From Takakia lepidozioides (lineage: Eukaryota > Plantae > Bryophyta), in contig CM060734.1 of assembly GCA_030704615.1 (NCBI GenBank), positions 56,110,001 through 56,174,000 of the forward strand: a DNA stretch of 64,000 nucleotides, in the 5' to 3' direction. Within the stretch, counting starts at the first letter, position 1. The number at the start of each line of letters is the position of its first letter. Below the pieces are notes generated by a model. The model did not search any database. It saw nothing but the letters and a program-made list of their open reading frames with translations, and was not told where the DNA came from. The position numbers and the translations under genes were made by a program. Below are positions 1-48,850 of the stretch, in pieces.

Positions 1-56
1 CCTATGAGCTTGGCCTCCCATGTCTTGTTAGCTGCCTCCAGTCGTGTCCACTGCCA

Positions 57-1117
57 CTATCCCAAGCAGTGTGGACTAACCAATCTCCGTCAGGAACCTT
101 CTCAAGACGTGGTGTCAAGCATCCCATATGCCAACTCTTTGAGCATCGATCACACACCAGCATGGTGGCTGCCCCTTTGGCAGACCCACAGAGCATGCAC
201 CTCAAACCTGCAGGTACCACTGCCAAGTTTGGGTCAACTCTGCCATCGACATTGGGAAGGTGACATGCACAATTACGCACATGGTCCTTCCAAGTCATGC
301 CATCCCGACCCTCCAAGATCAGGACCCCTGAGGGCAACACCTCTCGAACCCTCAGAATAACACGCCCTGCAGTAACATCCAGAGTCGTAGGAGCAGTCTG
401 CTGCAAATAAACATAGTCACCAGGGCTAAACCTCCGAACCCCATGACGATATCCTCCACCACGTATAGTGGCATACCTTAACGTATCACGGTGTTGTGCA
501 ATGGCAAGGTTCTCAAAAGCCATGGGCATGACTTTCTTGAACAATTCTGCATGCTTCACATGCACGTACCCACACGTCCGGATCATCAAGGTTAAGGACT
601 TGAGCAGTGTCCCTACGAATGGCTGCAGGCAAATCCGGCTCTCGGCCAAAGAGAAGGAAATATGGTGAGAAGGAGGCAAGTGATGCTTGTTTGCTGAACC
701 TGTAGCCCATGGCTAACCAAGGAACCTGAAGATCCCAATCTCCTAGGTGTCCCTTCTGCAAGCCATACTTGCGCAAACCCCTCTTCACCGTCTGAACAAC
801 TCTCTCTGCCAAGCCATCGGCCTCAGGATGATCCCAAGAAGTGGTGCGGTGGTCTATCAAGGCTTTATCACACAAAGCCTGAAACTCCCCCAAGAACTCT
901 CTCCCTTGGTCCGTAAGTACCTCAGCTGGAGCACCAAATCGGCTAAGCACACGATCCAAGAATGCATACGTAGCCCCCTCACTAGCCTTGTCAGGCAATG
1001 GAACCAACTCAATCCACTTGGAGAAGTGCTCCACCATCACCAACACATATCTGTGGTGGCGCATAGTCAGTGGCAACGGTCCTGCGAAGTCAAGACTCCA
1101 CATGTAGCCCAATCCCA
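57..1117 (-). pseudogene. Integrase core plus C-terminal PHD finger, copy A (frameshifted)
   Basis: WSLDFAGPL...LTDQGREF...DGLAERVVQT (D,D,E), then FSPGDYVYL module, then CMLC...CDRC...HMGC...DWL/PHC (ORFs 513..1118 and 2..679). Confidence 0.9.
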
Positions 1118-1714
1118 ACCTGCCACTACTAGATCAATGGAACCAACCCGCTCCAAATCCTGCGCCCCCAGCAACGAAATGTCTGCTAGCAAGGCCTAAT
1201 GATATCCACGAATTGCAGACACCGACAACAACTCAGCGTACCGCTGCACCAATTGAGCAACATGGCGAAGTGAAACGCGTCGTGCAGTCTCATCCCTCTC
1301 CACATACAGGTAACGCCGAACTCGTACACCTGCCTGTAACACAACAACCAATCCGGTGTTGATCCCGCCAAACAAGTCTAGAAGACAAATGCCTTCATCC
1401 GGATACTGCCACACAATAGGTGTGGTGTCCAATGGAGACAACTGAGGTGGTCCTGGTGCAATCCCCGCACTCTCCTCCTCTCCTGACGGTACAAAAGCCT
1501 CCACCCAAGCTTGTTGCACCCGTCTATCAGCATCCCGCTACAAATCCTTGCTCGTGCTCCACAATGGAGTCTGAGCAACCATGGTAGGCAACTCCGCCAT
1601 ACCATACATGTCATCCTACTCTCCCGGAGGTGGCACATCCTCTGAATGAGCGTTGCCCTCAAGTAACTCTCTAGGCCAACTCACTGCCGTTGTGAATGCT
1701 GCTAGTGTCGGCAT
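1118..1714 (-). pseudogene. N-terminal half of C5 DNA methyltransferase (motif I up to just before motif IV PC), copy A
   Basis: ICLLDLFGGINTG (motif I), YVERD (motif II), then IDLVVAGW joined directly to integrase GLGYMWSLDF. Confidence 0.85.
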
Positions 1715-1789
1715 CTTGCCTCGCTGGGCAACCGCAACTCCTCCTATGAACGTCACAGGGAGCTGCACACGCCGGCCCTCCCCTGACTG

Positions 1790-2200
1790 TCATGCAGGCC
1801 TATAGGAAGCTGACTCCTCCCAAAAATCCAAGGTGAAGCCCATGGGGTACAACACTGCCCCACCAACCGGGACATCGTATGAGACCGCGTCTGTCACAAT
1901 GGCCTTGGCTCGCATCATTGAGCCATCTGTAGGATGATCCGGCCGTAGTCTGATAGCTAACTCACGCCGGGTCATGCCCCGAGCCTGCTCCGATCCTCCA
2001 AGAGACGTCTGTATCTGGAAACGACAAAGCTCCATATCCGCCTCCGTGAGGCCCAAGCCTGCAATAGCAGCTCTTCCCAGCATCAATGGCTGAGCTCCCG
2101 AGTCCAACAAGACCCGTAGTGGCCGGTACCTCTTGCCTGCCGGTCCACTCAAACAGAAAATGCCATCCTGGTTGTCTAACATGACAACTCTAGGTGTCAC
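1790..2200 (-). pseudogene. Retroviral-type aspartic protease, copy A
   Basis: RVLLDSGAQPLMLG active-site motif and YDVPVGG-type C-terminal motif in ORF 1790..2623. Confidence 0.85.
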
Positions 2201-2807
2201 CATGGCGCGCTCAATGGCTGGCCTAGCTGGCAGCTCCATCAACCTGGCAGCTGCAGCTTGCCATGGCGCCGCCGTGGCAGTCTTGACCCTCAAATCCGAG
2301 GATCCCTTCGGCACTACACCTCCCACTATCTCCGTAGAAGATGAAGTAACCTCCCCACTCTCACAGAGTGTAGCTGCCAGCCTGAACACCTCAGCTAGTC
2401 TTACCCCTGGCGTCGCAATCATGGTAGCCGAGAACAATGGAGCTTGGCAAACAGATGTGGCCGCTCCTAGCAGCACACTAGCTGCCGTAGCCTTGGCAAC
2501 ACTAGTTTGTGCTACCCGTGTAGCTCTCAGTCGGGCGAGAACTAGGTGCCATGGATGGCGTCGACACTGTCTCCGCCAATGTGAATGACTGAGGAAGCCT
2601 AGCCTGACGGCTTGCCTCCCCACGCTGTGGATCTAACTCCACCTCTGCACCTCGTGGCTCAGGAACTCGTGCTGCTCCTCGAGTCACGGCTGCAGCAGAC
2701 TCCACCTGCACTAGTGGTAGTGCTGCTCCGCACATGAATCCCATGTCTCCCATATCTCCTCCCTCAGGAGCAGGAGGTGGACCATCCGGCCTTGGAGCCG
2801 GTACCAC

Positions 2808-4185
2808 CTAAACTGTAGCCATGGGAGCGAGCCTCTGCTCTAGCTGCTGAAGCCGGTTGGCCATGCCTTGGTCAACACCCTGACCTCCGCGTCCCTGACC
2901 ACCATTGTTCCCTTGGAACTGGCCTGGGCGCAACTCAGGATGCAAACCATAACACTGGGCCTCTCCATGCCCGTGCTTGCCACAATGCCCACACTGCAAC
3001 TGTGCAGACTTTGCATGTGCCGGCCCTTTGCCTCCCTCTGGGCAATCCTTCTTGACATGGGGTCCTCCACATGTCCAGCACATCCACATCAGCAAATGAA
3101 GGGAGAGACCCCTGCTTCTGAGGTCCTCTCTGCCCTTCCCTGAGCTTCACCTGAGCCCCCTTGTTGCCTTGAGCACGTTGATGTAGTGGTTGGCTAGGAG
3201 CACCACTACCCCGTGGTGTCTCCTTAGCAAATCCCACCATGACCACTCGTTCCTCCACCATGTTGAGCTCTATCCGCTCTGCCAGCAAAAACACATTTGC
3301 TAAGGTGGGTTGGGCCGCTTGTAGGAGAGTTGCATCCCGCACCCTTCTCCTCAGCTCCTTGTCCAATATCCCATACCAGAATTGGACTGCCTGAGCTTCC
3401 GTAATCCCTTGGGTTACATTTATCAAGCGCCTCATGCGAGTGAAAGCCTCCCTCAAGCTCTCGGTCGGCTTCCGTTGGAACTCTTGCAAGCTCTGCAACT
3501 TCTCTGTCCTCACCCCTTGGTAGTTCCTTCTCAACTCTTCGAAGAACTCCACAACAGGGTTGAAGGCAGGCATGGGTACTAGTGCTGGTGCAGTAGTGGC
3601 TTGGGTGGATGTCGTAGCTATTGTACCACCAGTCCCACTAGTCTCACTGCTGCTTGCTGAAGCTGCCGGTGTAGCCACTGCCCTTGTGGCTCTAGTGCCC
3701 CTAGTGATGGAGACATAGTCGGGTGACCAGTACATCCTCCACTCCTCGATCTCAAACTCATGCCCCCGCCTGAACTCATGGTAATCATCCATAGGCGGCC
3801 CCTCAAGGTGCTGAAACAGCCCCTTCCATGCCATGAAAGGCGTAAATAGTTGTGGATTGCGCATTTGCTGCAAATCACACCAACTATCAAACTCTTGGAT
3901 AAAATCATCCAACTCGATGATGCCCACCACCCCAGAGTACCTTCGTGGCCCCTTGGTAGCTCCATACATCTCCTCCATTATGTCCCACAACAATGGCAAG
4001 GAAACAACTTGCACCGCCGGTATGAGTCCTCCTGATTCACAATCCGAATCAGAACCTTCCGTAGAAGACACAGGAGGTGAAGGTGGCCTAAACCGCACAC
4101 CTCGTCTCGTGTACCCACTAATATCGCTAGTGCTCGAACCGGCACTGTCCCCAGCAACTAGTGGCACCTCCGTGTTGACACTCAA
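2808..4185 (-). pseudogene. Gag with two zinc knuckles, copy A (frameshift near 3095)
   Basis: 416-aa ORF with retrotransposon gag-like LQEFQRKPTESLREAFTRM; then CWTCGGPHVKKDC and CGHCGKHGHGEAQC in ORF 2808..3095. Confidence 0.8.
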
Positions 4186-4839
4186 CCGATAGAGAACCTG
4201 TTGCGGCTTATGGTTTGGAATACTAAGTTCATAACATAGCCTACACCTGTACCTGCATCCACCGCAAGCACTCCTATGGTTGGCTGGTCATCACCTCCAA
4301 CCTCACCACAGGAGAAACAATGATGGTCTGGCTGGTCATCACCCCAGCCTCACCATCGACAGCATGCTCTAGGACTGGCCGGTGATTAAATCCGGACCAA
4401 TCACCTATAAAAACAAGCGCCCACACAAAACTAGCATGGCGCACAGTCAAGCATGCAGGTATGGAGGGGATCCAAACACAAGAAATCAGAACGACAACTC
4501 CCCCACACCAAAAACAACTCCACGGTGTTGCTCCTAGAAGGACACCCCAGCCCAAACCCGGACTGACTCTTGCCTCCACCTACGGAAAGGTCTTGGCCTA
4601 ATGAGAGGGTGGAAACTACGAGGAAGAGAAGCTAAAGCAATGCCTAACCCCAGCATGCCCTCATCCCAACACTCTTCATCTCATCTCTTCCCTCACTTGC
4701 ATGACCATGGAATATCATGAAGATACTCCTCAAACCGCCCTCCACGAGCTTCAAAATTCGGCCTTCAAGACCACATACCAGTCCTTAGGCAGTCCACCAG
4801 TGCCTCCACGAGTCAGCATAGGCCGTCCACAGGTCAACA

Positions 4840-5722
4840 CAGGCCACCACAGACCAGCACAGGCCCACACAGCTCACAGGCCACAGCCTGTCACAGCCCT
4901 ACACAGGTCACAGGGTCACAGCCCCACAGGCCGCAGCCTGTCACAGCCCCAAAGGCCAGATGTCACAGCTTGTCATAGCCCATCACAACCCCAAAGGCCA
5001 CAAGCACAGCCTGTCACAGCCCTACAAAGGTCACAGGGTCCCAGCCCCAAAGGCCACAGCCTATCACAGCCCCTCATAGCCCCATAGGCCATAGGGCACA
5101 GCTTGTCACAGCCCGACACAGGTCACAGGGATCACAGCCCCAAAGGCCACAGCCCCTCACAGCCCGTCACAGCTCGCCACAACCCCACAGGCCACAGGGC
5201 ACAGCCTGTCACAACTCGCCACAGCCCGTCACAGCCTGTCGCATCCCGTCACAGCCCCACAGGCCACAGGGCACAGCCTGTCATAGCCCCTCACAGCCCC
5301 TCACAGCCCCACAGGCCACAGGGCACAGCCTGTCAAGCCCCTCACAGCCCGTCACAGCCCCACAGGCCACAAGGCACAGCCTGTCACAGCCCCTTATAGC
5401 CCGTCACAGCCCCACAGGCCACGGGGCACAGCCTGTCACAGCCCCTTATAGCCCGTCACAGCCCCACAGGCCACGGGGCATAGCCTGTCACAGCCCCTCA
5501 CAGCCCCAAAGGCCTCAGGCACGGCCTGACACAGCCCCTCACAGCCTGTCATAGCCCAAAGGCCTCAGGCACGGCCTGTCACAGCCCCTCACAGCCCATC
5601 ACAGCCCCAAAGGCCACGGGCACAGCCTCTCACAGCCTCTCACAGCCCGTCACAGCCCCGAAGGCCACTGGCGCAGCCCGTCACAACCCCCAAGGCCACA
5701 GGGACAACCCGTCACAGCCCCA
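4840..5722. repeat. C/A-rich minisatellite (GTCACAGCCC / CACAGGCCACAGGG units) in the 5' leader of copy A
   Basis: Dozens of cacagcc-based units in higher-order repeats of about 45-55 bp. Confidence 0.9.
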
Positions 5723-6209
5723 TCCATGGCCGCTCTGGCAGTTTAGCCATTTCTCCAAGGGGTTTAGCCACGCCAAGCTAGGGTTTGTGTCTCTTGGACT
5801 CTAGGCTTCTTTCCACCGAGCTATGGCGGCTGTGAGGAAATCAGCAAGGTATTCTTACTCTTTCGGCTCCCACACACCACCATAGTAGCCCTAAGCCATG
5901 AGGTGGTTGCCACAAACCAAGCCTTCTTTCTCACTTAGCCTCCCCAAACACGCCATTAAACTCAATGGCAAACAACCAAGCCCTGCTGGTTCCCAGCCCT
6001 TGTGAGCACTCATTCAAGCACTGGCCATAACATCTGTCTTAGAGCCTATTGCAGCCCCCTACACCTGCTGCTTCAAGAGTTGCGTTCCCTTCAAGCTTGA
6101 AGTTGAAACCCCAACTCACATAGGCCCTACAAGTGCTTTTCTTTCACTCCAAGTGGAAACCAGCCCTAGACCTTCCGTTCTAGCTCTCTAAAGCTTGAAA
6201 ACAAGAGCC

Positions 6210-6545
6210 TCAATGGGCTGAAGGCATGCTCCACACATGCCCCACTCTCACCATAAGAGAATCAGCTCCTTTGCTTCATTTCTTGCACCCACAAACCTGA
6301 AAATACAAGCTTCAGCAGGCTGAAAGCATGCTCCACATGCCCTACAGGGAAACCAGCCCCTTCCTTCCTTTCTTGCACTCCCACACCTGAAAGTGCAAGC
6401 CTTCACCAGGCTGATAGCATGCTCCACACATGCATTGCCCTCACATAAGGGAAGTCAGCCCTTCCCTCTTCCTTGCTTGCCCTCCAAGCTTGAAGATGGA
6501 AGCTTCAATGAGCTGAATACATGCTCCACACATGCAACCTCTTCA
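6210..6545. repeat. Degenerate ~100-bp tandem repeat (GCTGA..CATGCTCCACACATGC core) in the element leader
   Basis: Core recurs near 6217, 6319, 6409 and 6512; reverse-complement copies in copy B at 9320-9540. Confidence 0.7.
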
Positions 6546-7268
6546 CACAAGAGATATTAGCCCCTTATCTTGGCTCCTTGGCTCCTTGATGCTCTCTATG
6601 ACAAGACTAAGCACTCCACAGCCCTTGCCAAGCTCTTGAAACCCTAAGGCTTACATTTCTAGCCACAAGACACTCCTCTTGTGGTGCAAGAACTTTTCTT
6701 CCAAGCTCTGAAACCCTAGGTGCACATTCCATGGCCTTGCCGCACCTCTTAGCTCCTGTTCCAGCCCCGCTCTTGCCATGGCAAGAGCCCTCATACCGCT
6801 GGAGTTTCAGATTGAAACCCCCAACTCAACATAGCCACAAATGCATTGGCTTGCATACAAGAGAAATCAGCCATCTCTCTTCACTCATACCTCCTTATGA
6901 GCTTGAAGTTGGAGCTCCCGATAACTGTGACTTACATCTAACACCCTCGCAGCTCCACATTGCTGCAACTCCTTAACTTGGCCTGCAGCTGAAGAAGACG
7001 ACCACCAGTTCACCCACTCGAGACCAGCATCTCCCCCGCTTCACACTAGAAGCCCAAACTTGGTTGCCATAGCGTTGAGCTATGCAACGCCGCTCTTCAA
7101 CATGGGCTACCTGCCTCTCTATCCATTGCAAATCTGCAACTTGTTCGCCTTTGCACTCTATCCACTTTGGATAGGCTCATGCACGGATCCCTGCACTCTA
7201 GGCTGAACCGCTTCTCATGAAAACACAAGTGCTACAAAACAACTCGAACCTGGCACTCACAAACTCGA

Positions 7269-7490
7269 GCTCATCTTTCTCGAGTGATAAAGAAGAAGAA
7301 TACAAGCACGAGCTCATAAATCTGAAGCATAAACTCATGCATATATAACATCATCACTCAAATACAAGTCAAGCCAAGTGCACCCCATGCCATGGGGAAT
7401 CCACACTACGGCGCCATAGCTAGGCGCGGTGAGGCTCAACTCGAGAAAGATGAGCCTCCCGCGCTTGCCGTGAAGATAACCACTCCAGGG
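7269..7490 (-). repeat. Putative LTR segment of the DNMT retroelement (5' side of copy A)
   Basis: Reverse complement matches 13437-13552 downstream of the PHD stop in copy B (gagtggttatcttcacggcaagcgcggg...gacttgtatttgagtgatga...ttctttatca); contains TATATA. Confidence 0.65.
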
Positions 7491-8333
7491 CCTAAATCTG
7501 CCTTGACCCCTGGATTGACACTTGGGCCAATCCCAAATGTCAATATGTAAAAGCTAGCTATTTCCTAGCTAGTTTCACACTAGTGGTAAAATAACTTGAC
7601 ATTCCCTTCATACAAACCTCAATCAATAGATTCACATGAAAATGCTGAAGAGACGTTACCTATGGGTAATTTTCAAGTAGTGCCGCAAACCAATTGACAT
7701 ATGAACCTCTCTTGCCCTTTGAACTCTGTCCTTGTCGTGATTGTTGCGGTGGTGGATTTGATGTTGTGGCACCTGAAAGAAGTGCCATTTGAGGATCTGT
7801 TTTTCGAGGTCTGCCAAGTGGGTTTTTGGGTTTGATGGGAATGTTTGTCTTTTTGTTTGCAACCTCCTCAGACAACTGCAATGCCATTTTATGTAACCAT
7901 AGATCTCTCTCTTATTTGGTAATGGGCTTTACAAATTCTGTCAAAACTAACTGTTTGGAGGCCATGATATCTAAAACAAGACTCTAATCGCTTACTGCAT
8001 CTGTGAACTCCAACACTAGTCCTCATCATAACTCGTTTTTTCCAATGTCGGTCTTGTTTTCTTCAAACAACAAAAAAATGCTGGCAAATTCTCTTACGTT
8101 GACATTTACACTTCAGAGCCCTATTTCGAATTGCATCTATGAGAGATAATGCTCTGTAAGTTATCAGCTTACAAGAACAATGGGTGGTTGGAATGTACTC
8201 ATCAGGGTTGTTCTTCACAAAACAAAGTATGCATGGACATAGACTCCTCACCTCCATCACACGTTGAATAAAATTTTGCAGAAACAAGAGTACTGGTATG
8301 TTAAGGAGCTCCATCGATGAAGACCTCCCTAAA

Positions 8334-8483: not shown

Positions 8484-9797
8484 CGTGAACTGTTTGACTG
8501 TTGCAGATGGTGCGTGCAGCCTCTAAAGATGTGGAGCTTATCGCAAGCTTGTATTGTAGGTGGCAAAAAAATTTCAATCATAAACTGCCGAAACAATATA
8601 AAATATGAGGTGTCGAGTGGACTAAACCTCCAAAAAATAATTATTTCGGCACTGTGCTGTCGAATTTGACGGCAACGTACGGTACATGACGACATGTGTA
8701 ACTCCACTCGGGGTTACATCACAAAATGGTCTCGAAATTTGACTAAGTCCAAATGTGGCTAAGTATAAAATTGACTAATTAGAGTTGCATAAGAGACCAA
8801 GGTATAGGGCTACACAGATTGGAATACAAATACCCGGGTTACACTACACGAGCCTCCCATCAAGAATCAAGCCCAGAACCACATCGCCTACAATGTTACC
8901 ACCTTACCATCACTCTACCCACCACAACATGAAATCCACTTGGATTCTTAAGTACTAGGGCTTCGCGTTGCTCCGCACTACTAGCGACGAATTCTGAGAA
9001 CTACGTTCAATGCAAATCAGTGCACGTTGTGGAGTATGTTGAGAGTGGGTTTCAATCTCGAGCTTCAGCATTGAGAGGGCTCTTGTCATGGCAAGAGCAG
9101 GGCTGGAACAGAAGCTAAGAGGTGCGGCAAGGCCATGGAATGTGCACCTAGGGTTTCAGAGCTTGGAAGAAGAGCTCTTGCACCACAAGAGGAGTGTCTT
9201 GTGGCTGGAAATGTAAGCCTTAGGATTTCAGGAGCTTGGCAAAGGCTGTGGAGTGCTTAGTCTTGTCTTAGAGAGCATCAAGGAGCCAAAGAGCCAAGAT
9301 AGGGGGCTGATACCTCTTGGTTGCATGTGTGGAGCATGTATTCAGCTCATTGAAGCTTCCATCTTCAAGCTTGGAGGGCAAGCAAGGAAGAGGGAAGGGT
9401 TGACTTCCCTTATGTGAGGGCAATGCATGTGTGGAGCATGCTTTCGGCCTGTTGAAGGCTTGTACTTTCAAGTTTGGGAGTGCAAGAATAGAAGGAAGGG
9501 GCTGGTTTCCCTGTAGGGCATGTGTGGAGAATGCTTCCAGCCCGCTGAAGCTTGTCTATCAGACTACGGCCGGATCACCCTACAGATGGCTCAGTGATGC
9601 GAGCCAAGGCCATTGTGACAGACGTGGTCTCATACGATGTCCTGGTTGGTGGGGCAGTGTTGTACCCCATGGGCTTCACCCTGGATTTTTGGGAGGAGTC
9701 AGCTTCCTATAGGCCTACATGGCAGTCAGGGGAGGGCCGGCGTTTGCAGCTCCTTGTGACGTTCATATGAGGAGTTGCGGTTGCCCAGTGAGGCAAG

Positions 9798-11060
9798 ATG
9801 CCGACACTAGCAGCATTCACAGCGGCAGTGAGTTGGCCTGGAGAGTTGCTTAAGGGCAACACTCATTCAGAGGATGTGCCACCTTCGGGAGAGCAGGATG
9901 ACACGTATGGTATGGCGAAGTTGCCTACCATGGTTGCTCAGACTCCATTGTGGGGCACGAGCAAGGATTTGCAGCGGGATGCTGATCGACGGATGCAACA
10001 AGCTTGGGTGGAGGCTTTTGTACCGTCAAGAGAGGAGGAGAGTGCGGGGATTGCACCAGGACCACCTCAGTTGTCTCCATTGGACACCACACCTATTGTG
10101 TGGCAGTATCCGGATGAAGACATTTGTCTTCTGGACTTGTTTGGCGGGATCAGCACTGGATTGGCTACTGTGTTACAGACAGGTGTACGAGTTCGGCGTT
10201 ACCTATATGTGGAGAGGGATGAGACTACACGATGCGTTTCACTTCGCCATGTTGCTCAGTTGGTGCAGTGGTACCCTGAGTTGTTGCCGGTGTCTGCAGT
10301 TCGTGGATATCAGCAAGCCTTACCAGCAGACATTTCGTTGCTGGGGGCGCAGGATTTGGAGCGGGTTGGCTCCATTGATCTGGTAGTGGCAGATTGGCCT
10401 TGCCAAGGGCATTCATCAGCCGGGCATGGCAATGGATTGCAAGACTCGAGGTCGGGTCTGTTTTGGGAGATGGTGCGGGTTTTGCGCCACTTGCAGCTTC
10501 ATCAAGCTGTATCTCTAGCATACATCTTGGAGAATATGCCACTGATGGGCGATTCTCGGGCCAGGGTGATGGCCAGTGTGCATCAAGTGCGGTCGTGGCT
10601 TGGGTTAGCAGTGTTGCTAGATGCAGCTACAGTGGGGTCACGGGCTCATCGTCCACGGCTATGGTGGACTAACTTGATGTCACCCGCACTGCTCAAGCGT
10701 GCATTTGATGGGGTGCAACGGCCAGCACATCTCACAGTGGATAGCATTTTGGACACAGGGAGGCAGTCTCAGCGTGTGAGACACGATGACCGTTCGCCTT
10801 TGGGAGTGGTCAACAAGGTGGGTCAACCACGAGCAACACTACCTACACTGCTCAGCTTCCCAGGATCGCATGCTTTCCGGGATAATGGACCTGGCCTCCT
10901 ATGGGATGCTCAGCAATTAGTGGAGCCTAATGCTGACGAGTGAGAGCGGGCTATGGGTTTTTCCACTGGGACCACGGCGGTGCCTTCTCTTTCTTAGGCA
11001 TCACGTCGTCAGGTGTTGGGGCAAGCAATGGATCTCAATTGCTTGACCTGGATTATCAGC
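9798..11060 (+). pseudogene. DNMT3-like C5 cytosine methyltransferase domain within the retroelement polyprotein
   Basis: Motifs in linear order: I LDLFGGIS (10131), II YVERD, IV DWPCQ (10398-10406), VI LENM (10530), VIII AHRPRLWWTNL (10644), IX E*ERAMGF (10938), X RRQVLGQAMD (11004). In-frame stops at 10941 and 10995. Confidence 0.92.
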
Positions 11061-11498
11061 TTGGCTATGGCTGAGCAACGAAGAGTGCGGAGTGCACTTC
11101 CCTTGACGGTCTCTCTGCCTACCGAGACGGTACAGGCAGTGAGTGGGGGCGAGCCGGTGAGGACCATAGGGTGTAGACATCCATGGCACACGTGGGAGGT
11201 GCTTGAGGTTCAGAGGGAGTTGGCAGCCAAGGCGGCTGTGATGGATGAGGTTGGGGAATCTTCTCGGGTTGAGGAGGTCCTCAAGGATGAGATGATGGGG
11301 CAGGATGAGGCCTTGTCATTGACTGAGCAGGCAGGGAGTACTGCTCAAGAGGTTGCGGCATAGTAACCACGGGACGCGTCCTCTACCTCTAAGTTTGCTG
11401 GACTTAAGGTTGCAGTTACGAAGGGCAATTGGGAGCCTGACATTGGACCATTGTCACTAGAGGAGAGAGACGACGTATACGGCGGTTCCTGAGGTTTT

Positions 11499-11610
11499 AA
11501 GAATTGCTTTGCCTCTCGTGCTACGGTGGAGGAGCATGAGAGACATGTTCAGGTTGTGCATCGACCGGGTTTGGTCAATAGGGATGCGGATGGATTGAGT
11601 CGCAATCCAT
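11499..11610 (+). pseudogene. Fused remnants of RT and RNase H
   Basis: KNCFA|SRATVEEHERH|VQVVHRPGLVNRDADGLSRNP: pre-RT segment, the post-YxDD 'S.T.EEH..H' helix, and the RNase H C-terminal 'HRPG..N..AD.LSR' motif. No YxDD or RNase H core present. Confidence 0.75.
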
Positions 11611-11939
11611 GCACGAGCCAGCAGGATGACACTGGAGCTCGGTGGCATGGTGAGACGGACGAGGAGATGGTGTCGGGATGACATGCATCTGCCTTTTTGT
11701 GTATCTTGGCATCGAGAGGTCGGGTTGGACCTACAACAGGGATGACTGTAGACGGAGTGTCTGAGGACCCTGAGGCTAGTGATGAGCCAGGTGGTGCCAG
11801 AGATATACATGAGGATTTGGTTGTGTTGGACTACCTCCGCACTGGAGATACGGCAGCTAATGTGACTGCCAAGGAGATGGATCGGATCCTGCAACGAGCC
11901 AAGAGGTTCAAGTGGGAGGGGATACACCTACTTTGAGTG

Positions 11940-13251
11940 TGGGAGGATGGTCGGGTGAGGATTGTGCCTCACCCCACACAGCGTGCACGGTTAGTGCGGC
12001 ATGCCCATCAGGAGTTGGGGCATTTTGGAGTGTGACGCACTCACAGTTTACTGTAGGGGCAGTATTGGTGGCGTGGTATCATACAGAGGTGCAACAGTTC
12101 GTGGCTAGGTGCATGGTGTGTGATAGGGTGCGTGCTTCATTCAACGCCCCTACACCACAGTTGCATCCTTTACCAATCATGGGATTGGGCTACAGGTGGA
12201 GTCTTGACTTCGCAGGACCGTTGCCACTGACTATGCGCCACCACAGATATGTGTTGGTGATGGTGGAGCACTTCTCCAAGTGGATTGAGTTGGTTCCATT
12301 GCCTGACAAGGCTAGTGAGGGGGCTGCGTATGCATTCTTGGATCGTGTGCTTAGCCGATTTGGTGCTCCAGCTGAGGTACTTACGGACCAAGGGAGATAA
12401 TTCTTGGGGGAGTTTCAGGCTTTGTGTGATAAAGCCTTGATAGACCACCGCACCACTTCTCGGGATCATCCTGAGGCCGATGGCTTGGCAGAGAGAGTTG
12501 TTCAGACGGTGAAGAGGGGTTTGCGCAAGTACGGCTTGCAGAAGGGACACCTAGGAGATTGGGATCTTCAGGTTCCTTGGTTAGCCATGGGCTACACGTT
12601 CAGCAAACAAGCATCACTTGCCTCCTTCTCACCATATTTCCTTCTTTTTGGCCGAGAGCCGGATTTGCCTGCAGCCATTCGTAGGGACACTGCTCAAGTC
12701 CTTAACCTTGACGATCCGGACGTGTGGGTACGTGCATGTGAAGCATGCAGAGTTGTTCAAGAAAGTCATGCCCATGGCTTTTGAGAACCTTGCCATTGCA
12801 CAGCACCGTGATACATGATACGTTGAGGTATGCCACTATACGTGGTGGAGGATATCGTCCTGGGGTTCTGAGGTTTAGCCCTGGTGACTATGTTTATTTG
12901 CAGCAGACTGCTCCTACGACTCTGGATGTTACTGCAGGGCGTGTTATTCTGAGGGTTCGAGAGGTGTTGCCCTCAGGGGTCCTGATCTTGGAGGGTCGGG
13001 ATGGCATGACTTGGAAGGACCATGTGCGTAATTGGGCGCGATGTCACCTTCCCAATGTCGATGGCAGAGTTGACCCAAACTTGGCAGTGGTACCTGCAGG
13101 TTTGAGATGCATGCTCTCTGGGTCTGCCAAATGGGCAGCCGCCATGCTGGTGTGTGATCGATGCTCAAGGGATTGGCATATGGGATGCTTGACACCACCT
13201 CTTGAGAAGGTTCCTGACGGAGATTGGTTGTGTCCACACTACTTGGGATAG
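11940..13251 (+). pseudogene. Integrase (HHCC, DDE core, GPY/F-like module) with C-terminal PHD finger, copy B
   Basis: HAHQELGHFG...CMVC; WSLDFAGPL; LTDQGR; LAER; FSPGDYVYL; CML(S)...CDRC...HMGC...WLCPH(Y). Several stops and frameshifts. Confidence 0.9.
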
Positions 13252-13731
13252 TGGCAGTGGACATGACTGGAGGCAGCTAACAAGACATGGGAGGCCAAGC
13301 TCATAGGAGTCAATACATAAGATCCCAAGCTCAAGTTCACAGGTTGCAAGACGGCAACTAACGATGGGGCAACTCTTGCACCCGGCCTCTTGATCTATCG
13401 AGTTTGAGTGTAGTAGGGATAGTGGTGGAGGACTTAGAGTGGTTATCTTCACGGCAAGCGCGGGGGACTTGTATTTGAGTGATGAGGTTATATATGCATG
13501 AGTTTATGCTTCAGATTTGTGAGCTCGTGCTTGTATTCTTCTTCTTTATCATTGTGTGGACTAGTGACTGCCATAGTGGGCAGCATAGTGGTAGCCTAGT
13601 GACTGACTAGTTGTAGCCTAGTGGTTGGACTAGTGGCTAGACTAGTGGTGGACTAGTGATATACTAGTGTGTGGTGTGCACATGTGTTGTGTGGTTTTGG
13701 ACAGCGATGTAGTTGTGTTCCGATACATGAT

Positions 13732-13991: not shown

Positions 13992-14730
13992 ATGCATAGC
14001 CCACATTCTTGTGCATTTGTTGGTAAGATCTGTTTTGACTCACACTGAGTATGTGATTCAGTGATGCACATACCTTGGAACCCTAGCCCTGGCCAAAAGG
14101 TAGTAGCTTCCCATCAGCTTCGAAGAAGCACATATTCTCCACTACTGCAATGCACAGAACCTGGGCACAAAAAACATCACCTATATGCGGGATGGATTCT
14201 TACTTATGCAAAGGTTTCTGTCCCTTTGTGTAATTAACACATTCTATCTCTTCCTACGCTATCATTTGGCCGTCATTTCTGTTATATCCATGGGGCTAAT
14301 AGCCAAGCCGCTACAGCAAGAAAAATCTATTCAGTTTGCAACATGGCTGAGCACCTTAAGGATGATTTGAAGGGCCTAGATACAGTCAGCACTAGACTGA
14401 AATCTAAACTGAGGGCAGGAGTCTACCTTAGAACAATAAACAGATGTAGACATGAAAAGAACATTGTCAATGCCGGCAGTGTGGTTGGCAATATTCATTT
14501 TCTGACCCTGCTGCCATGACCCATTTGGGAGCTAGAGGCTAACGTCAGTAAATATGTTGCGGTGGCATTCAACAACAGAAATCCTTCCACAGGGAATCAT
14601 AGGTAATCTGGAGCTTGAAATCCGGCCCTCTTGGATGAATCTGGACCTACACTCTATCCCTGCTCCTTCAGCTATCCATGCCTCTGCACAAATCATGCAT
14701 ACATCCTTGCCTTGCTGCTAGCAGCTGACA

Positions 14731-15441
14731 ATGACAGCCTATAATTGGTTAGCATCCCATACAACAATTGCTCGGCCACATTTGGCATACATGTCCACGA
14801 GGGTATTGTTCAGAATCACATCTGGTACAATTCCAGCTTTGGCGATGCAACCATGCACCTCTTTGCCCTTCTCCAGGGCTGCCAGGCTTGCACACGCACT
14901 GCAGACGCACACAAACGTGATGTGGTCGGGCTTCACCCCTTCCCCCATCATTTGCTCATAGGTCTCCAAAGCCTCTATCCCGCGCCCCTGTTGTGCCTGC
15001 AAGCATCGCGTTCCACGACACCACGTTCAACCATAGTGTTGAAAACTCCCTTCGCATCCTTAATGCACCCACATGTGGTCGGGCTTCAGTACCCCTTCCC
15101 CCATCATTTGATCATAGGTCTCCAAGGCCTCCATATCACGCCCCCTGCTGTGCATACGTTGCAAGCAGTGTGTTCCACGTGATCAAAGATGGTTGAGCCA
15201 TTTTGTTGAACACTTGGTGAGCATCCATGATGTTCCTGCACTTAACATACATGTTGACAAGGGTGTTGAGTAGAAAAACATTTGGCGGGAATCCACTTTG
15301 GATAATGTGAGTGTGCATCTGCTTTCCAGCTTCCAGACCTTCCATCTTGATGCACTTAAGCATGAGATAGACATAAGTATCTGAAATGCCTCCTTGGTTT
15401 AAAGTCTGTACAGAGCCTTTGTCAGACAGCCTGCTACACAA
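14731..15441 (-). pseudogene. PLS-class PPR gene fragments
   Basis: GFPPNVFLLNTLVNMYVKC, ITWNTLLATYAQQG, GVKPDHITFVCVCSAC, LVDMYAKCG in several broken frames. Confidence 0.85.
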
Positions 15442-15946
15442 AGCATCTTCACATGGCCAGAAGTGCCAGAAGAGGCATTGTGGACTCCCTCTCTTGATCC
15501 TCTTTCAAAAGCTGCGGTCGTGGTTGAGGTGCCTGATTTTAGCAAAGGCGCCGCTGCAGCTGCTGCCTTTAGGTGACCATTTACCCATACAGGTTTCTTG
15601 TAGCTATTGATCCAAAGGGAATCATATGTAATCTGGAGCTTGAAGTTCTAGGAACACTTTTTGCCTCGATTGTCCCACCATTAACTGGGGTCAGAAAATT
15701 ATTCATTCCATAGCTTCTCATCGTCTCTGTTATTTGTTTCTGGATACTTTCCTGTTGTCACATTGGCAGTATCATGTCAGTCACTCCAAATTATCAAAGG
15801 TTCACTCACCCAGCTAACTTGCAGAATTCAACACGAAAAACTTAGGGCCGATTCTGATAAGAGGAAAAAACAGGGTGAAATGTGTTGAAGAAGGTGCCTT
15901 CATTAGCAGTGTTTGACTTTATCAATTGTGCCGCTGCCGCTGCCGG

Positions 15947-16884
15947 GTCAACTTCTTGCTGATACGGAAGTGTGTTCCAAGGGCCGTGCTGATGAGCCCA
16001 AAAGCAATGGCCAGCTTCTCACTGTGAAGGCAAAGAGAAAATTCCTTTCAAATGTTCCTCCTCCATATCCTGCAGTACAAAGCGTGTATACCCAGAGTCC
16101 TTCATCTGTGCAGACAACCTCTTCAGCTCTCTATTGCACCCCAAATTTGTCATTTACAACGAATGTATGCACCTGCTTGGCCACCGCAATAGAGTTGTGG
16201 CCTGGCTCCTTTATGACCCCTCTTTTCTGCATCATTTTTCTCACTCTGGCTGTGCCCTCCCACCTGCCAGCCGCAACATCGATGTTTGATAACAGAACAT
16301 AAGTTCCGGCATGAGGCACCAAGCAAAGCCCCCCACACTGCAACATCTGGTTCAATTGGCATTCTTTTAATTAAGTCTTGTGCCTCATTCAGGTGGCCCG
16401 CACGGCCAAGGAGGTCTACCACGCAGCCAAAATCCACTTTGAGAGTGAGCCCATGATCCCGACTCATTGAATCAAAGTAATGGCATCTTTTATCCACCAG
16501 GTCCACATGACTACGTGCAGAGAGAACATATGTAAAGGTGATACTGCTCGGCTTCATGCCTTCTTGTTGCATTTCTTCAAATAGTTGCAGAGCCTCTCCG
16601 CCACACCCATGCTGAGCATATCCTGCAATTATTGCACTCCATGAGACCACATCCCGTTCAACCATGTTGTCGAATACTTCACGGGCATCCTTAGTTCTCC
16701 TGCATTCGGCATACATGTCAATGAGGGTTGTCTCCAGAATGATATCTCGTGCAATTCCAGCTTTGATAATGTCAGCATGAACCTCCTCGCCCTTTTCCAA
16801 GGCCGCACATGCAGTGAGAAGGCAAACAAATGTGATCTTGATGGGTGTCACACCTTTTTGAATAAAATAGATGAGCATTGACAA
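15947..16884 (-). pseudogene. PLS-PPR with E/E+ and truncated DYW deaminase domain
   Basis: DVVSWSAIIAGYAQHG, CVVDLLGRAGHL, VWGALLGA, YVLLSN, KRGVIKEPG, then MKDSGY...HSEKLAIAFGLIST...RISKKL, ending before CxxC. Frameshifted. Confidence 0.88.
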
Positions 16885-19800
16885 CTTCTCCTCGTCTCTA
16901 TTACCTGTTTTTGGATACTTTCCTGTTGTTACATTGGCAGTATCATGTCAAGGTCACTCCAAACTAGATTCACTCAACCAGCTAACTTGCAGAATTCAAG
17001 TTTAAGAGGGAAACACAGGGTGAAATGTGTTGAAGAAGGTACCTTCATTAGCAGTGCCTGAATCTGGACCCACACTCTATCCCCTGCTCCTTCAGCTATC
17101 CATGCACAAATCATGCATACATCCTTGCCTTGCTGCTAGCAGCTGACAATGACAGCCTAGATTTTTTCGAGGAAACACCCAACTCAACTTATCACACTAG
17201 TTCCTATGCTCAATTGCATGGAAATTTAGGGCCGATTCTGATAAGAGGGGAAACAGGGTGAAATGTGTTGAAGAATGCCTTGATTAGCAGTGCTTGATTT
17301 TATCAATTGTGTCGCTGCTGCTGCGGCTTCCAGTTGACCATCTACCCATGCAGGTTTCTTGTAGCTATCATTCCACATGGAATCATAGGTATTCATTCCA
17401 GTGCTTCTCCTCGTCTCTGTTATCTGTTTTTTGATTCTTTCCTTGTTGCCACATTGGCAGTAACATGTCAAAATCACTCCAAAACCACCATAGATCCACC
17501 AACAAGCTAACTTACAGAATTCAACATGAATAGGGACGACTCTGATAACAGGCATCTCAGGGCCGAGTCTGATGAGAGGCAAAACAGGCTGAAATAGGTC
17601 GAAGAAGAAGGTGCCCTCACCACATTGCGTGAAACCCCTCCGCGCAAGGATGCCTGGTATCGTCATCCCTTCTCGCGCTGCACTGACATTTTTGGGCAGT
17701 CCGGGCAGGTCCGACGAAAATTGACGACGACGAAACGTGGCGATGATGACGTGGTGACGATGACGAGGCACTATGGCACCCTATTCCTGCTCTACGCTAA
17801 ACTAGTTTCCGACCTTCCGTCATCGCTAGAATTTAGAATAGTGAAACCAAGGTAAGGGGGGGTGGAGAGGATTTGACAGGGCCCGTCGGAGGAGCCTAGG
17901 CTGCCGGAATCCGACGAAAGTACCATCAGATCGCACGCGTCCATTAAGTTCTTACATTATTCCTATTGTCTTCCAAATAAAAGATGATATAGTTTGCAAA
18001 ACAATAAACTTTATGATAAACAAAACATCTCATATTTGGTAATTCTATTGGTCAGCGTTAGAATCTCCTAGGTTGAAACAAAAGCCTACTCATTTTTAAA
18101 AAAAAATGTAATCTCATCTGTTTGTTGGTTTTTATTTAAAAGATATGAAATACCCATTAGCGAGACTTGAAGAGTTTTATCCATTCATACCTCTTGAATA
18201 ATGTTGTCTAATATAGTGCTTATGTACCTCCTATTTGTTTCTCAACTCTGGCATTCATCATCTTTGTAATGTGGTGAATTCAGAAATTAAATGGACGCAC
18301 ATGTTTGCAATGCAGAATACGTATTTTATCACAATTTTTTCTAGATGTTTATCACTTTATGAAATTCATTATACTCAACAATGAATAATAGTGTGTTTCT
18401 TCTTTTCTCAGTTAGTCGGCGGCTATGTTTGGCATTCAATATATTTTTATTCTCTTACGTCTTTGTGATGACATGAGCAATAACTTAATAGGAAAAAATC
18501 CAACACATTTGAAGACTTTTCTCATAGGCAAGTAAACAACATCATTCAAAATAAGGATCATTATTTGATTTATCTTCATTTGGATTATTGGGAGTTAGTT
18601 GACAATCAAATAATCATAACCATCTTGTGGTGTGTTTGATGATGTAAATATTATTGCTACAATACTATTGCATATATGTTGTTGGTACTCACCACATGAT
18701 ATCTTTCTTAATATAATTCTCATGCTGTTGCCATAGATAATATATATATATATATATTTTAATTCGATAGATGTATAGTTTCGAAACAATGTGGCTTTAA
18801 TGTTACAAGGTGATAGAGTCAATTTTTGGAACGCATATAAATTCTAATAGATATAAATGTCAAATATCAAAACATACCAACATTGTTATGTAGAACCAAT
18901 CATTCACCTTTACTTTTCTCAAGCAAACAAAACAAAATAAATATGTAGTTCTGCTGTATAGATTTCATTGCTTGATATATAAGATGAAATAAAATCTTGA
19001 AGAAGATGAAATATATAGTATATATTGAATAATGAGTTGAACAAAATGTCTATACAATGGTCTTAGGGCATTAGATTCAGCTTGCAATCGTGATGATGTC
19101 ATTCTGTATTCTTCGTATTCTTGTGCGATTTTTAATTTTGATCTGTGCATGTATTGTGTTTGCTATGTGGGTATGCTTATTGAGTCAATATCAATTTCAT
19201 ATTGCATATCAGGGAGTGTTTTTGCATACTTTTGAATTTTGTTGATGTCGTTAGGGTTGGACTATGATGCTACTACACTTAATCTTAGCGCACTTATTAC
19301 ATTGGTTTTTTCTTTGTTGCGGCAGGGGCGGTCCATGGAGCAATTGATATAGTAGAAGCTGAGTTGTGTGATGTAAACAATACTATCAACTCTCAAAACA
19401 AAATTGAAGGGAAAAGCATGGAGACTGAGTCCTTCAAGAAAACAGTAGGTCTCCCTATTTTTGAAAGCTCCCGAAAATCCCTTGGATATATATTAATTCT
19501 GTAGTTGATCATGAGTTTTTGGCAAGAAGAAAATGAATACATGATGACGAGGCTGAAGAAAATAATAAAAAGCTAAATACAAAATCCAGACAAGAACTCC
19601 AGTGAATAAAACTATTTAGGATGAAAGGAAGATGAAGATAAAATATAAATATAAACGTTGTTTCTTTGTACCAAACTTTTTTTTTTCTTTTTTTTTCTTC
19701 TTTTTTTTATTAAATTTTCCATGCATTTAATTTATTATACTGATTCTATGTTATCTCTTTGGGATTAGAACTTCAATTTATATTTAGTTTTGTAGTTATG

Positions 19801-19915
19801 TAAGATAACACCTACAAAACTATTTTTTTTGATGTAAAACATTGCAGCTTTATGTTTATCCACTAATCTAGACGCATCAAGTATTGAAGAGGGTTGTACA
19901 TTGAGACTCCATCCA

Positions 19916-20764
19916 ATGGCAGAGAATAATGGTTCACCGGAAGACCCAACCTCTACCCCAACAAATGCATCTTTCCTCACGACCGCACCAATGTCTTCAA
20001 GCAAGAAACAAACACCCGCATCAGATGACACTCCCAAGAGACTTTCAGGCACCCACACACCATCGTTGGGGATTCCAAAACTTGGGTATGGAACAGACCC
20101 CCCTTCTCCAACAATGAACGGACATGGCTACAACTATCTTCGCTTTAGGTCCCCGCATTATTCTCGAGATGGTTCCAATATCAGTTGGTGGTATGTTCTC
20201 TTTTTAGGTCTTGCAACGTGTATGATTCTTCTTCTCGGGGTGATTGCCTTTTTGGTGTACATCATCTTGCGACCTCAGGCACCTCGTATCAATATCCTAT
20301 CCGTGCACATCAATCGGTTTACAACCACTGGGGGTTCATTAGCTGGAGGAGAGCATGAAGCTTTGACAGCAGATATGGCTTTCACATTCCAAGCGCAAAA
20401 TCCCAATATAAAATTGGGCATTCATTATGTGGAGATTGATATGTTGGCCTCTTACAAGGGCACACAGTTGCCACTTGCACCGGTGCCTTCGTTCTACCAG
20501 CTACCACATAATTCCACCATTTTAGTCTCCAAGTTGAAGGTCGACAATGCTCCATTGTTGGTGGTTGATTCTCGAACCAGTTTGAGAAACAAAAATAATG
20601 AAATCCCTTTGTATGTGATGGTTGACATGAAGGTGGCCGTTCGGATTGGAAATTGGGAAACTCCCACCTTTTCAGTCCATGTTGGATGTTACATAAGAAT
20701 AATTCGTCTCGGCCCTTCGATGGAGGCCAAATTCTTGTCCAGTGTGTGTGATAGAAAAAAGTAA
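19916..20764 (+). CDS. NDR1/HIN1-like (LEA_2 domain) membrane protein, intronless
   Basis: Disordered N-terminus, one hydrophobic helix followed by LRPQAP, then QNPNIKLGIHY, VPSFYQLPHN and terminal Cys residues typical of NHL proteins. Confidence 0.88.
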   Translation: MAENNGSPEDPTSTPTNASFLTTAPMSSSKKQTPASDDTPKRLSGTHTPSLGIPKLGYGTDPPSPTMNGHGYNYLRFRSPHYSRDGSNISWWYVLFLGLATCMILLLGVIAFLVYIILRPQAPRINILSVHINRFTTTGGSLAGGEHEALTADMAFTFQAQNPNIKLGIHYVEIDMLASYKGTQLPLAPVPSFYQLPHNSTILVSKLKVDNAPLLVVDSRTSLRNKNNEIPLYVMVDMKVAVRIGNWETPTFSVHVGCYIRIIRLGPSMEAKFLSSVCDRKK

Positions 20765-29787: not shown

Positions 29788-30799
29788 CTAGAAACTGGGC
29801 TAGAGTATTGGGAACTGGAAACAAGAGTAACTTGAACTGGTGTTGGCGAGACTGAAGAGTGTCCAGTCTCGCCTCCTATATATACTGACTACTAAGAAAC
29901 TTCCCTAAGAAGCTTCCCCTATGGAGGTTGCTTGCTGGAGAAGTTTCCAAGATTAAACAAATGTTTCTTGATGGAGAAGCTTCCTTAAACAAAGGAGGTA
30001 TCTTGATGGAGAAGTTTCCTCCAAAAGAAGCTTTCTGAGCAGTTTCCCAAGTTATTCTTGGTAATTTGGTAAACTCCTGGTAACTTGGTAAGTAATGGTA
30101 AATCATGGTAAATCACGGTAAGTCATGATAACTTCCGGTAACATGATAACTTGGTAACTTCTGGTATTTACTCCTGGTAAGTTCCTATGGGCTATGTCCG
30201 TGACATCACCCCCTCCTCTAGCGCTGCGTTCCTTGAGGAGCGGTAAAATCTTGGACTTGCTTAGAGTTGGAGAAAATCCAAAATCCGGCGAATGGTACTT
30301 GCCAAGTATTCGGGTCTTCGTTCTTGACTCAAATGATTTATAGATCCTTGCAACCATCGATAGTGTCCAATACCTTGAACTTGGGACCACGAAGTGATTT
30401 GAGCATTCTGATGTTTGAAGCTACCTTCGTTGCCCTCTGGGTCCAAAGCCTCAACCTCCAACAGAATTATCAGACTTCGAATAAGCTTCACTTGGCGTCG
30501 TACGGGGTCCAGACGAGGAAGTACGCGTCGCATTGGTGGCCCATCGTCTCGAGAGCGTCGGCGTGATGTTGAAGGTCATGAGAGTCGGAACAACTGATCT
30601 GGTAGCTGGGTAAGTGACAACTCCAATGTATCTGGCATACTGCCAATACAAAATGCAAGAGTGTTGGAAGTGTAGCTATATATACTGATGTATGGTGCTC
30701 CTCCCTCCTTAGCGTGTATAAGGTACATTGAATGTGGAGTCTTCACCTTGAAGCTAACTTGGCTGACATCATCGTTGTGACGTCTTATTGACGTGTAGC

Positions 30800-35326: not shown

Positions 35327-35351
35327 CTTAACTAACTAAGAAACAAACTTG

Positions 35352-35362
35352 AGTCTCGCCAA
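35352..35362 (-). promoter_or_regulatory. Putative self-priming primer-binding site
   Basis: Sense TTGGCGAGACT just inside the 5' LTR is complementary to sense AGTCTCGCCAA (35634-35624), which lies ~25 bp downstream of the TATA. Confidence 0.75.
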
Positions 35363-35364
35363 AC

Positions 35365-48299: not shown

Positions 48300-48850
48300 G
48301 AATGGTGGTGCCAGCTACCATGTCACCCAAAGTGACATCCACTTCCAGGGCTGCCTTGACATACATATCCACCAAGGCAGTGTTTAGAGTGACATCTAGT
48401 GATACAACTCCAGCTTTGACGATGTCACCATGGACCTTTGTGCCCTTTTTAGGGATGCCAGGCTCACATTTGACGTAGATGTACACCAAGGGAATGTTCA
48501 GAATGACATCTGGTACAATTCCAGCTTTGATAATGTCACCATGAACCTCTTTGCCCCTCCCCAGGGCTGCTAGGTTCGCATATGCATATTACAAACACAA
48601 ATGAACATGACCTAGTCTGGCTTCATCCCTTCCCACATCATTTGCTCTTAGGTTTCCAAAGCCTTAATCCCATACCCATCATAATGCACATACCTTGCAA
48701 TCATGGCACTCCAAAATACCACATCTCGTTCAGCCATATTGTCGAACTCTCCCTTCGCATCAGGCTTGCTGCACCCACATTTGGCATACATGTCCACTAG
48801 GGCAGAGTTCAAAATGACAACTGGTACAATTTCCACTTTAACGATTGGCA
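48300..48850 (-). pseudogene. PLS-class PPR fragments
   Basis: ALVDMYAKCG, ERDVVFWSAMIA, VHGDIVKAG. Confidence 0.8.

Follow-up and report, generated by a model that had tools for sequence, protein, structure and literature searches.

A 64,000-nt stretch of the genome of the moss Takakia lepidozioides (assembly GCA_030704615.1, contig CM060734.1, positions 56,110,001 to 56,174,000 of the forward strand; hereafter, the window) contains two deleted copies, A and B, of one Ty3/gypsy retroelement family that encodes a cytosine methyltransferase. Judged from alignments and predicted structure, this methyltransferase is a real DNMT3-like, non-permuted enzyme (hereafter, DNMT) and a fixed part of the family, which is an old green-plant Ty3/gypsy lineage common to mosses, liverworts and green algae. 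The family is characterized by its domain order, an in-frame stop codon with its context between DNMT and reverse transcriptase (RT), purifying selection on the DNMT, TG..CA termini, 4-bp target duplications, the repeat plan A-internal-B-A-B, and complementarity of the primer site to repeat A. We consider it reasonably likely, on balance, that these features form one scheme, a Gag-protease-DNMT3-stop-RT-RNase H-integrase-PHD lineage with a leaky stop, a packaged DNMT and methylated cDNA. In this scheme, the conserved stop is likely read through at a low rate, which would bring the production and packaging of the methyltransferase to levels like those of Gag, and the packaged enzyme would likely methylate new cDNA before or at integration.

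The methyltransferase and its retroelement family

In copy B, the frame that starts at 9552 (plus strand) covers the C-terminal half of the protease (PR), a spacer and then a complete C5 cytosine methyltransferase, with motifs at approximately 10140 (I, FGG), 10398 (IV, PCQ), 10530 (VI, ENM), 10647 (VIII, HRPR), 10944 (IX) and 11007-11033 (X). An earlier note on this DNA, made from the letters alone, had claimed such a linear motif set, which is borne out at 10140-11033, and the three Pfam families that it named were all found, i.e., PF00145 (E=1e-9; 38 bits, with a cut-off of 22), rve and PHD (PF00628; E values in Table 1). Its assignment to DNMT3 holds as well: by sequence, DNMT3A/3B/3C are the closest entries in the PDB, with HhaI and DRM ranking lower. 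For the intact DNMT of a near-intact relative, L082, an AlphaFold model was obtained (pLDDT 80.9), and all 35 rows listed by Foldseek for this model were DNMT3 entries, with TM scores of ~0.6-0.75. The six motifs in linear order, together with the DNMT3 fold, place the enzyme in the DNMT3 class of C5 methyltransferases; a DRM origin was rejected because the motif order is linear, unlike that of DRM. Catalytic conservation was assessed in two alignments. In the one with 11 rows, WPCQG and EN do not vary; in the other, with 9 rows at 34-50% identity, the same holds for the catalytic Cys, the EN of motif VI and the R-x-R of motif VIII. The stops at 10941 and 10995 are specific to copy B, since sister copies have sense codons there in >99% of depth (runs X1 and X5). 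The ratio of nonsynonymous to synonymous substitution rates (dN/dS), a check that the earlier note had proposed, was 0.085-0.25 between families (pairs with measurable dS; many pairs were saturated), which indicates purifying selection on the DNMT at the sequence level. Between close copies the ratio was 0.33-0.78, as expected for decay.

A search of longer proteins returned 28 matches (up to 72% identical) among 7,998 scored candidates; 16 of these relatives are from Marchantia, two from Calypogeia, two from Sphagnum and eight are without a name, and several have RT, RNase H (RH), integrase (IN) or PHD domains. An alignment scan of metagenomes gave 186 candidates, 141 of them confirmed; the best 80 of the 141 loci were used, and the genome-bin contig L082 was added. 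Scans with a single sequence found no match in metagenome or viral contigs, the metagenome matches having come from the alignment scan, and viral contigs held only distant phage-type C5 methyltransferases. RT directly follows the DNMT in 49 of these best 80 loci. An independent insertion of the methyltransferase, which the earlier note had named as one finding that would overturn its view, was rejected on this ground. The order Gag-PR-DNMT-RT-RH-IN-PHD recurs among relatives (Marchantia, Calypogeia, Sphagnum and metagenome loci), which have the Ty3/gypsy domain order Gag-PR-RT-RH-IN. A profile search gave 499 clusters (50% identity) at E<=1e-30, with Klebsormidium nitens (Gag-CCHC-PR-DNMT), Closterium (DNMT before RT) and Scenedesmus among the named members.

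It should be noted that copy A, which the earlier note took as proof of family architecture, does show a fusion of the protease to the 5' third of the methyltransferase; however, it is 94-97% identical to copy B and thus provides no independent evidence, which comes instead from the other species. The description of copy B as broken only by point stops has to be corrected, since a gag/protease deletion, a deletion of ~1.25 kb in RT/RNase H and several indels were found; the frame common to the methyltransferase and the integrase zinc finger results from offsetting indels.

A DNMT tree was built by a quick method from 70 of 245 sequences, without host DNMT3; a redundancy filter left 155 sequences, from which a random 20 of the 79 chlorophyte-type rows plus the named ones, and selected others, were taken. 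The window, Marchantia, Calypogeia, the moss-type loci and L001 group together at a support of 100. The Klebsormidium-type sequences, the chlorophyte-type sequences and a second lineage form separate clades, the base of the tree being not settled. The same core group (the window or its nearest loci, L001, moss-type loci and L082) was recovered in the DNMT, RT and IN trees. In the second lineage (L065, L069-L080), from the same metagenomes, no stop interrupts the DNMT-RT junction, and motif IV has E-C in the place of P-C; the split repeats, the B/A junction and the self-priming complementarity described below are common to it and the main lineage.

A host DNMT3 or DRM gene, or a pseudogene of one, captured a single time by an ordinary Gypsy element has very little probability as an explanation and is refuted in this form. 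In its favour, one could cite that host DNMT3 genes occur in bryophytes according to the accessible text of PMC5890265, and that no host DNMT3 was placed in the trees. Against it, the location of the DNMT does not differ between liverwort, moss, Closterium and Klebsormidium elements, the domain is under purifying selection, the profile search found hundreds of clusters, and the DNMT has no introns and a motif order unlike that of DRM.

The chlorophyte-type radiation (Scenedesmus named; P0151, P0156, P0166 and others) encodes a single polyprotein, of up to ~3,400 aa or more, with the order RT-RH-DNMT-IN-PHD; the full order is present in 42 of 227 domains, and no description of this radiation was found in the literature searched. 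The contig L082 is a near-intact plant-type retroelement in a genome bin labelled as a cyanobacterium, with one match in that genome, and a close relative of it, P0034, is annotated in another bacterial bin. Both are likely to be eukaryotic contamination posing as bacterial methyltransferases.

The stop codon between methyltransferase and reverse transcriptase

In copy B, the Gag-PR-DNMT frame closes with the stop at 11361-11363, where no other letter reaches 3% in the three runs that contain the family (X1, X5 and X6), and sister copies carry the context CAR-YYA; a fourth run gave no alignment to it. The earlier note overlooked this stop as a conserved family feature and placed the DNMT inside the polyprotein; the DNMT is indeed a fixed part of the Ty3/gypsy family, but in this lineage it ends the Gag-PR frame. 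Decay as the origin of the stop was rejected, because it is kept in all three runs and a homologous stop is present in other families. In L082, open frames of 1162 and 1047 codons are separated solely by TAG-CAA-TCA, and in L001 TAG-CAA-CCA is followed by 766 open codons up to the contig end. In the moss-type family (33 distinct copies from 40 loci; shorter or interrupted loci were left out), the stop is present in 31 copies (23 TAG and 8 TAA), and CAACCC follows in 32. Among 17 colinear moss-type copies, 16 have a stop in this column, compared to at most two in any other column of the linker. The Marchantia and Calypogeia gene models P0003, P0004, P0005 and P0017 end 96-100 aa after motif X. 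The Klebsormidium-type proteins P0029, P0041, P0043, P0052, P0057, P0073, P0086 and P0152 end 27 residues after motif X, a hint that the Klebsormidium-type DNMT, known from proteins alone, may also close an open reading frame (ORF).

According to the accessible text of PMC3159437, UAG-CAR-YYA is the readthrough motif of tobacco mosaic virus (TMV), and Gag-Pol of murine leukemia virus (MuLV) is made by readthrough. A conserved in-frame stop with a tobamovirus-like CAR-YY context predicts readthrough, and with it a DNMT at Gag levels. We therefore consider it highly probable that readthrough would produce Gag-PR-DNMT-Pol, with Gag-PR-DNMT as the major and Pol as the minor product. Several observations weigh against this interpretation: two of the 33 moss-type copies have TAC in the stop column, the moss-type CAA-CCC matches only five of the six letters of the motif, L046 has TAG-TAG-CCA at the junction, the junction is open in the second lineage, and in chlorophyte-type elements the DNMT lies between RNase H and integrase in one protein. 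The last two suggest that a Gag-level DNMT is not required by all such elements. In addition, pol could be expressed by splicing or reinitiation. An element with the same stop that expresses pol via splicing, reinitiation or an internal promoter is improbable in our estimate. Four gene models (P0008, P0010, P0015 and P0026) do continue past the DNMT into RT over a shorter linker, which is what a predicted intron would produce; however, in L001, L082 and the 17 colinear moss-type copies RT follows the stop without any shift of frame, families whose linkers vary in length and sequence still have the CAR-YY context, and a contig guessed to be RNA (X12 record 12; it may be DNA) spans the junction unspliced.

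Terminal repeats, priming and the role of the methyltransferase

Instead of two full direct long terminal repeats (LTRs), we found split direct repeats, with the plan A-internal-B-A-B in some relatives (a B-A-B right end in six distinct loci) and A-internal-B in others, which end after the first B (six distinct elements). The termini are TG..CA, and the five elements with both ends have 4-bp target duplications, four exact and one near. The B/A junction is CA-GC-TG in five of eight distinct cases, in both lineages, with GT in two cases and AT in one. B1 is immediately preceded by a G-tract, and A1 is immediately followed by the primer site.

A1 is followed by a sequence that can pair with an internal part of A, usually ~30 nt past a TATA; in copy A this complementarity is 16 nt long, and no TATA was seen. 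Its length is up to 16 nt in the moss type, 13 nt in the second lineage and 11 nt in L082, and the letters differ in each. When left ends from four families were compared to control windows, 14 of 22 exceeded all 100 controls in primer-site complementarity, and the predicted fold of the window RNA contains the self-primer helix (Table 1). These results suggest that the RNA very likely primes its own reverse transcription from its 5' end, in the manner of Tf1; the eight left ends that failed to exceed all controls speak against it.

Because B+A lies between the G-tract and the primer site, it is the unit that ordinary reverse transcription would duplicate, with an att-like junction in the middle. 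A retroviral integrase, that of foamy virus, can cleave palindromic LTR-LTR junctions (accessible text of PMC1180852). Thus, B+A may be the working LTR, the integrase cutting the internal CA-GC-TG, and the insert would be a two-LTR molecule opened there. If two-LTR circles were opened at random, some A-B-A-internal-B inserts would be expected, and none of the 19 distinct left ends has B before A; this counts against the proposal and argues against random opening, which leaves the junction step evenly poised in our judgment. A 14-nt junction pattern had 78 viral matches, which were treated as chance.

Alternatively, the split repeats could arise via template switching of the DIRS/PAT kind, yielding a linear A-internal-B-A-B cDNA with ends trimmed ordinarily by the integrase. 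We regard this as rather doubtful. In its favour, A stands first at each of the 19 distinct left ends and B-A at none of them, and the repeat plan is the one called DIRS-like in the accessible text of PMC5890265; however, the G-tract before B1 and the primer site after A1 make B+A the unit duplicated in standard reverse transcription, the A2/B2 joints vary, six elements end at B1, and the rearranged copy L023 keeps part of the primer site, as end-joined molecules do.

With regard to function, the conserved catalytic residues are compatible with a DNMT that is active on DNA and acts on the cDNA of the element itself, a proposal for which we see the case as equally strong on either side. Against it stand the CpG observed/expected ratio of the copies, 0.51-0.55, within the window range of 0.52-0.84, and the report that the related Klebsormidium element KnitGypsy-Dnmt3 did not methylate yeast DNA, a result termed inconclusive in the accessible text of PMC5890265. 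If the DNMT were kept for a non-catalytic or non-DNA role instead of cDNA methylation (RNA/cDNA binding, shielding or RNA methylation), the inactivity of KnitGypsy-Dnmt3 in yeast, the lack of a CpG signal, the E-C that replaces P-C in motif IV of the second lineage and the Gag-level amounts, which suit a structural function, would all be accounted for. Such a role is nevertheless unlikely, given that neither alignment shows any variation in the catalytic Cys, Glu and Arg-x-Arg and that related Dnmt3 domains borne by DIRS elements methylated CG in yeast (PMC5890265, accessible text).

The PHD finger of L082 has as its nearest structures (best 60 of 81) those of CHD4, PHF12, UHRF1, KDM5 PHD1, PHF21A and AIRE. 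Many of these PHD fingers read unmodified H3 tails, like the ADD domain of DNMT3. By analogy, the PHD may guide integration to chromatin with unmethylated H3K4, for which we put the chances slightly short of even. A wider scenario, tentative and on the whole unlikely, would combine these steps: a Viridiplantae-wide Gypsy lineage with an active DNMT3 that predates land plants, and a land-plant branch with readthrough loading, self-priming and a DDE integrase that opens an att junction in mid-LTR, leading to pre-methylated, PHD-steered copies. If true, the element would be a mobile mimic of the host DNMT3-ADD system and could write part of bryophyte methylomes.

The presence of the family in Marchantia, which is transformable and has methylation mutants, makes the role of a transposon-borne DNMT directly testable; long Gag-PR-DNMT models, e.g., Mp4g09160, are annotated there. 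Bryophyte methyltransferase inventories and transposable element libraries may be incomplete, because LTR finders and gene callers would likely fail on elements with split repeats and an internal stop. The repeat plan also offers a natural test of junction cleavage as a normal route of DDE integrases.

The window copies and their relation to known elements

Copies A and B hold complementary parts of the element, each without one end (Table 1). Copy A is on the minus strand (1-7520) and extends past the window edge. Its left end is preserved, as are gag, the protease and the DNMT for the first third of its length, after which a deletion leads into the integrase core. Copy B is without gag and most of RT/RNase H and has frameshifts: a deletion at 9555/9556 removed gag and the catalytic half of the protease, and the ~1.25 kb of RT/RNase H is absent between 11494 and 11548, where one contig (X12 record 12) has ~1,300 nt. 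Indels relative to the sister copies are found at 11447, 11499-11500, 12079 and 12741. In run X1, 49,394 of 3,038,600 contigs align on the 5-kb stretch, which indicates abundance and gives no copy number.

Table 1. Features of copies A and B, in window coordinates
Feature	Positions	Strand	Evidence
Copy B: 5' untranslated region remnant joined directly to protease, gag deleted	9010..9555	+	90% match to copy A 6856-6305; next match jumps to copy A 1956
Copy B: aspartic protease C-terminal half, catalytic half missing	9556..9767	+	tblastn with protease domains of L001/L082; translation
Copy B: DNMT3-like C5 cytosine methyltransferase, linear motifs, two copy-specific stops (10941, 10995)	10095..11078	+	PF00145; DNMT3A best PDB match
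Copy B: conserved in-frame TAG closing the Gag-PR-DNMT frame, with decayed CAR-YYA context; predicted readthrough site	11361..11369	+	Runs X1, X5, X6; homologous stop in other families
Copy B: pol scraps (RT start, 30-nt RT island 11518-11547, RNase H end)	11370..11600	+	Loose ends at 11494, 11518, 11548; X12 record 12; comparison with L001/L082
Copy B: DDE integrase, zinc finger and core, frameshifted near 12079	11946..12733	+	rve E=3e-13; H2C2 weak; indel row
Copy B: PHD finger at integrase C-terminus	13093..13251	+	PF00628 E=2e-8
Copy B: repeat A2 remnant, internally deleted; B1 and B1/A2 junction lost	13429..13551	+	Matches copy A 7493-7458 and 7370-7285
Copy B: probable repeat B2 and right end (end point inferred by eye)	13552..13727	+	Follows A end as in L027/L038; ends CA
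Copy A: left terminal repeat A1, TG start, CA end	7285..7520	-	
Copy A: 16-nt segment in A1, exact complement of primer site, predicted self-primer	7440..7455	-	Sequence; RNA fold helix z=-4.67
Copy A: predicted primer-binding site directly after A1, complementary to A1	7269..7284	-	Sequence; RNA fold
Copy A: gag reading frame, frameshifted towards zinc-knuckle part	2935..4287	-	Retrotrans_gag E=9e-4, below cut-off; strong match to relatives' Gag
Copy A: aspartic protease with catalytic motif	1745..2146	-	Pfam weak; matches copy B and relatives
Copy A: DNMT 5' third, ended before motif IV by deletion running into integrase core	1115..1417	-	Comparison with copy B, relatives
Copy A: integrase core (1118-561) and PHD finger (214-80)	80..1118	-	97% identical to copy B 12180-13307

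Tandem repeat arrays (4827-5722 and 6155-6570) occur in the long 5' untranslated region of copy A, and part of this sequence is common to copy B (9322-9555). An unrelated second Ty3/gypsy element (29788-35996; coding minus strand, 31432-35335), with DUF4939, protease, RT and integrase matches, is flanked by 93%-identical direct repeats (29788-30205 and 35569-35996) and served as outgroup; no DNA-methylase match was found in its scanned frames. The window also holds two degraded clusters of pentatricopeptide repeats (14586-17627 and 43330-48845), largely mutual inverted copies with 75-89% identity, and pieces of host genes, namely LEA_2 (19838-20764), xyloglucan endotransglycosylase (52858-53328) and a ZIP transporter (61704-62195). 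These genes and the pentatricopeptide repeats mark the host as a land plant, and the nearest named relatives of the retroelement point to a bryophyte. The LEA_2 protein had no relative at E<=1e-10; Atlas placed a pentatricopeptide repeat frame no more closely than Streptophyta and assigned the DNMT to generic C5 methyltransferase clusters.

In a search that left most subscription journals and Repbase outside, no publication was found to describe the readthrough stop or land-plant members of the family; the name KnitGypsy was found only in PMC5890265 within the literature searched. The accessible text of PMC12344493 mentions, citing the 2018 paper (PMC5890265), that some DNMT3s lie within retrotransposons of streptophytes and dinoflagellates, and has nothing more on the family; the accessible texts of PMC11982613, PMC9477723 and bioRxiv 2021.02.12.428880 add nothing on it.

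The family combines features of several known systems. The elements of the Tf1/Sushi group and the plant Tcn1 chromoviruses resemble it in self-priming without tRNA, in their occurrence in moss and in a chromatin reader on the integrase (accessible text of PMC6317226, in the main text of which the words PHD and methyltransferase are absent); the window family differs in its DNMT, its split repeats and a PHD instead of a chromodomain at the integrase C-terminus, and its self-priming site is recognized by sequence complementarity only. An in-frame UAG ahead of the polymerase is found in TMV (UAG-CAR-YYA) and MuLV gag-pol, and the 3' context is of the TMV type (PMC3159437, accessible text), whereas the stop of the window family comes after protease and methyltransferase, not after Gag, and its readthrough is predicted.

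Elements of the DIRS/PAT type have the terminal plan A-coding-B-A-B. This plan is given for DIRS in the legend of Fig. 1 in PMC5890265, as accessible. The window family, in contrast, is without a tyrosine recombinase and has a DDE integrase and target duplications; membership in DIRS was rejected because all full-length relatives have a DDE integrase, and no recombinase family was found among the Pfam matches of 24 long proteins or of the 28 relatives. SymbioDIRS-Dnmt3 is likewise a retrotransposon-borne Dnmt3 in a split-repeat element, and its enzyme methylates CG in yeast (accessible text of PMC5890265); however, the SymbioDIRS elements use a tyrosine recombinase, whereas the window family has a DDE integrase, TG..CA termini and 4-bp duplications.

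The closest known element is KnitGypsy-Dnmt3 of Klebsormidium nitens (PMC5890265, de Mendoza et al. 2018; statements on this element refer to the accessible text), which has in common with the window family the Gypsy domain set, a non-permuted Dnmt3-like domain, purifying selection and DIRS-like A..B-A-B repeats. The K. nitens protein GAQ93235.1 (Gag-CCHC-PR-DNMT) has the same order as the window family. The hosts here are land plants, DNMT identity is ~36%, and the two fall into separate clades. In KnitGypsy-Dnmt3, the DNMT is placed in the ORF of RT (PMC5890265 and a review file); this location in the RT/RNase H ORF is found in the second lineage, whereas in the lineage of the window a conserved stop separates the two. 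PMC5890265 calls the DNMT an acquisition in the K. nitens lineage and treated the capture as a lineage event; for bryophytes and lycophytes, its species table lists Physcomitrella and Selaginella, with Marchantia and Sphagnum absent. Its text does not mention self-priming, readthrough, a PHD, target duplication or a junction motif for KnitGypsy-Dnmt3 (the figures may show more). Compared to KnitGypsy-Dnmt3, the apparently new features are the conserved and likely leaky stop, the putative self-priming site and the TG..CA split repeats with the CA-GC-TG junction. The window family is a land-plant branch of the KnitGypsy-Dnmt3 kind, with related elements also in Closterium and Scenedesmus.

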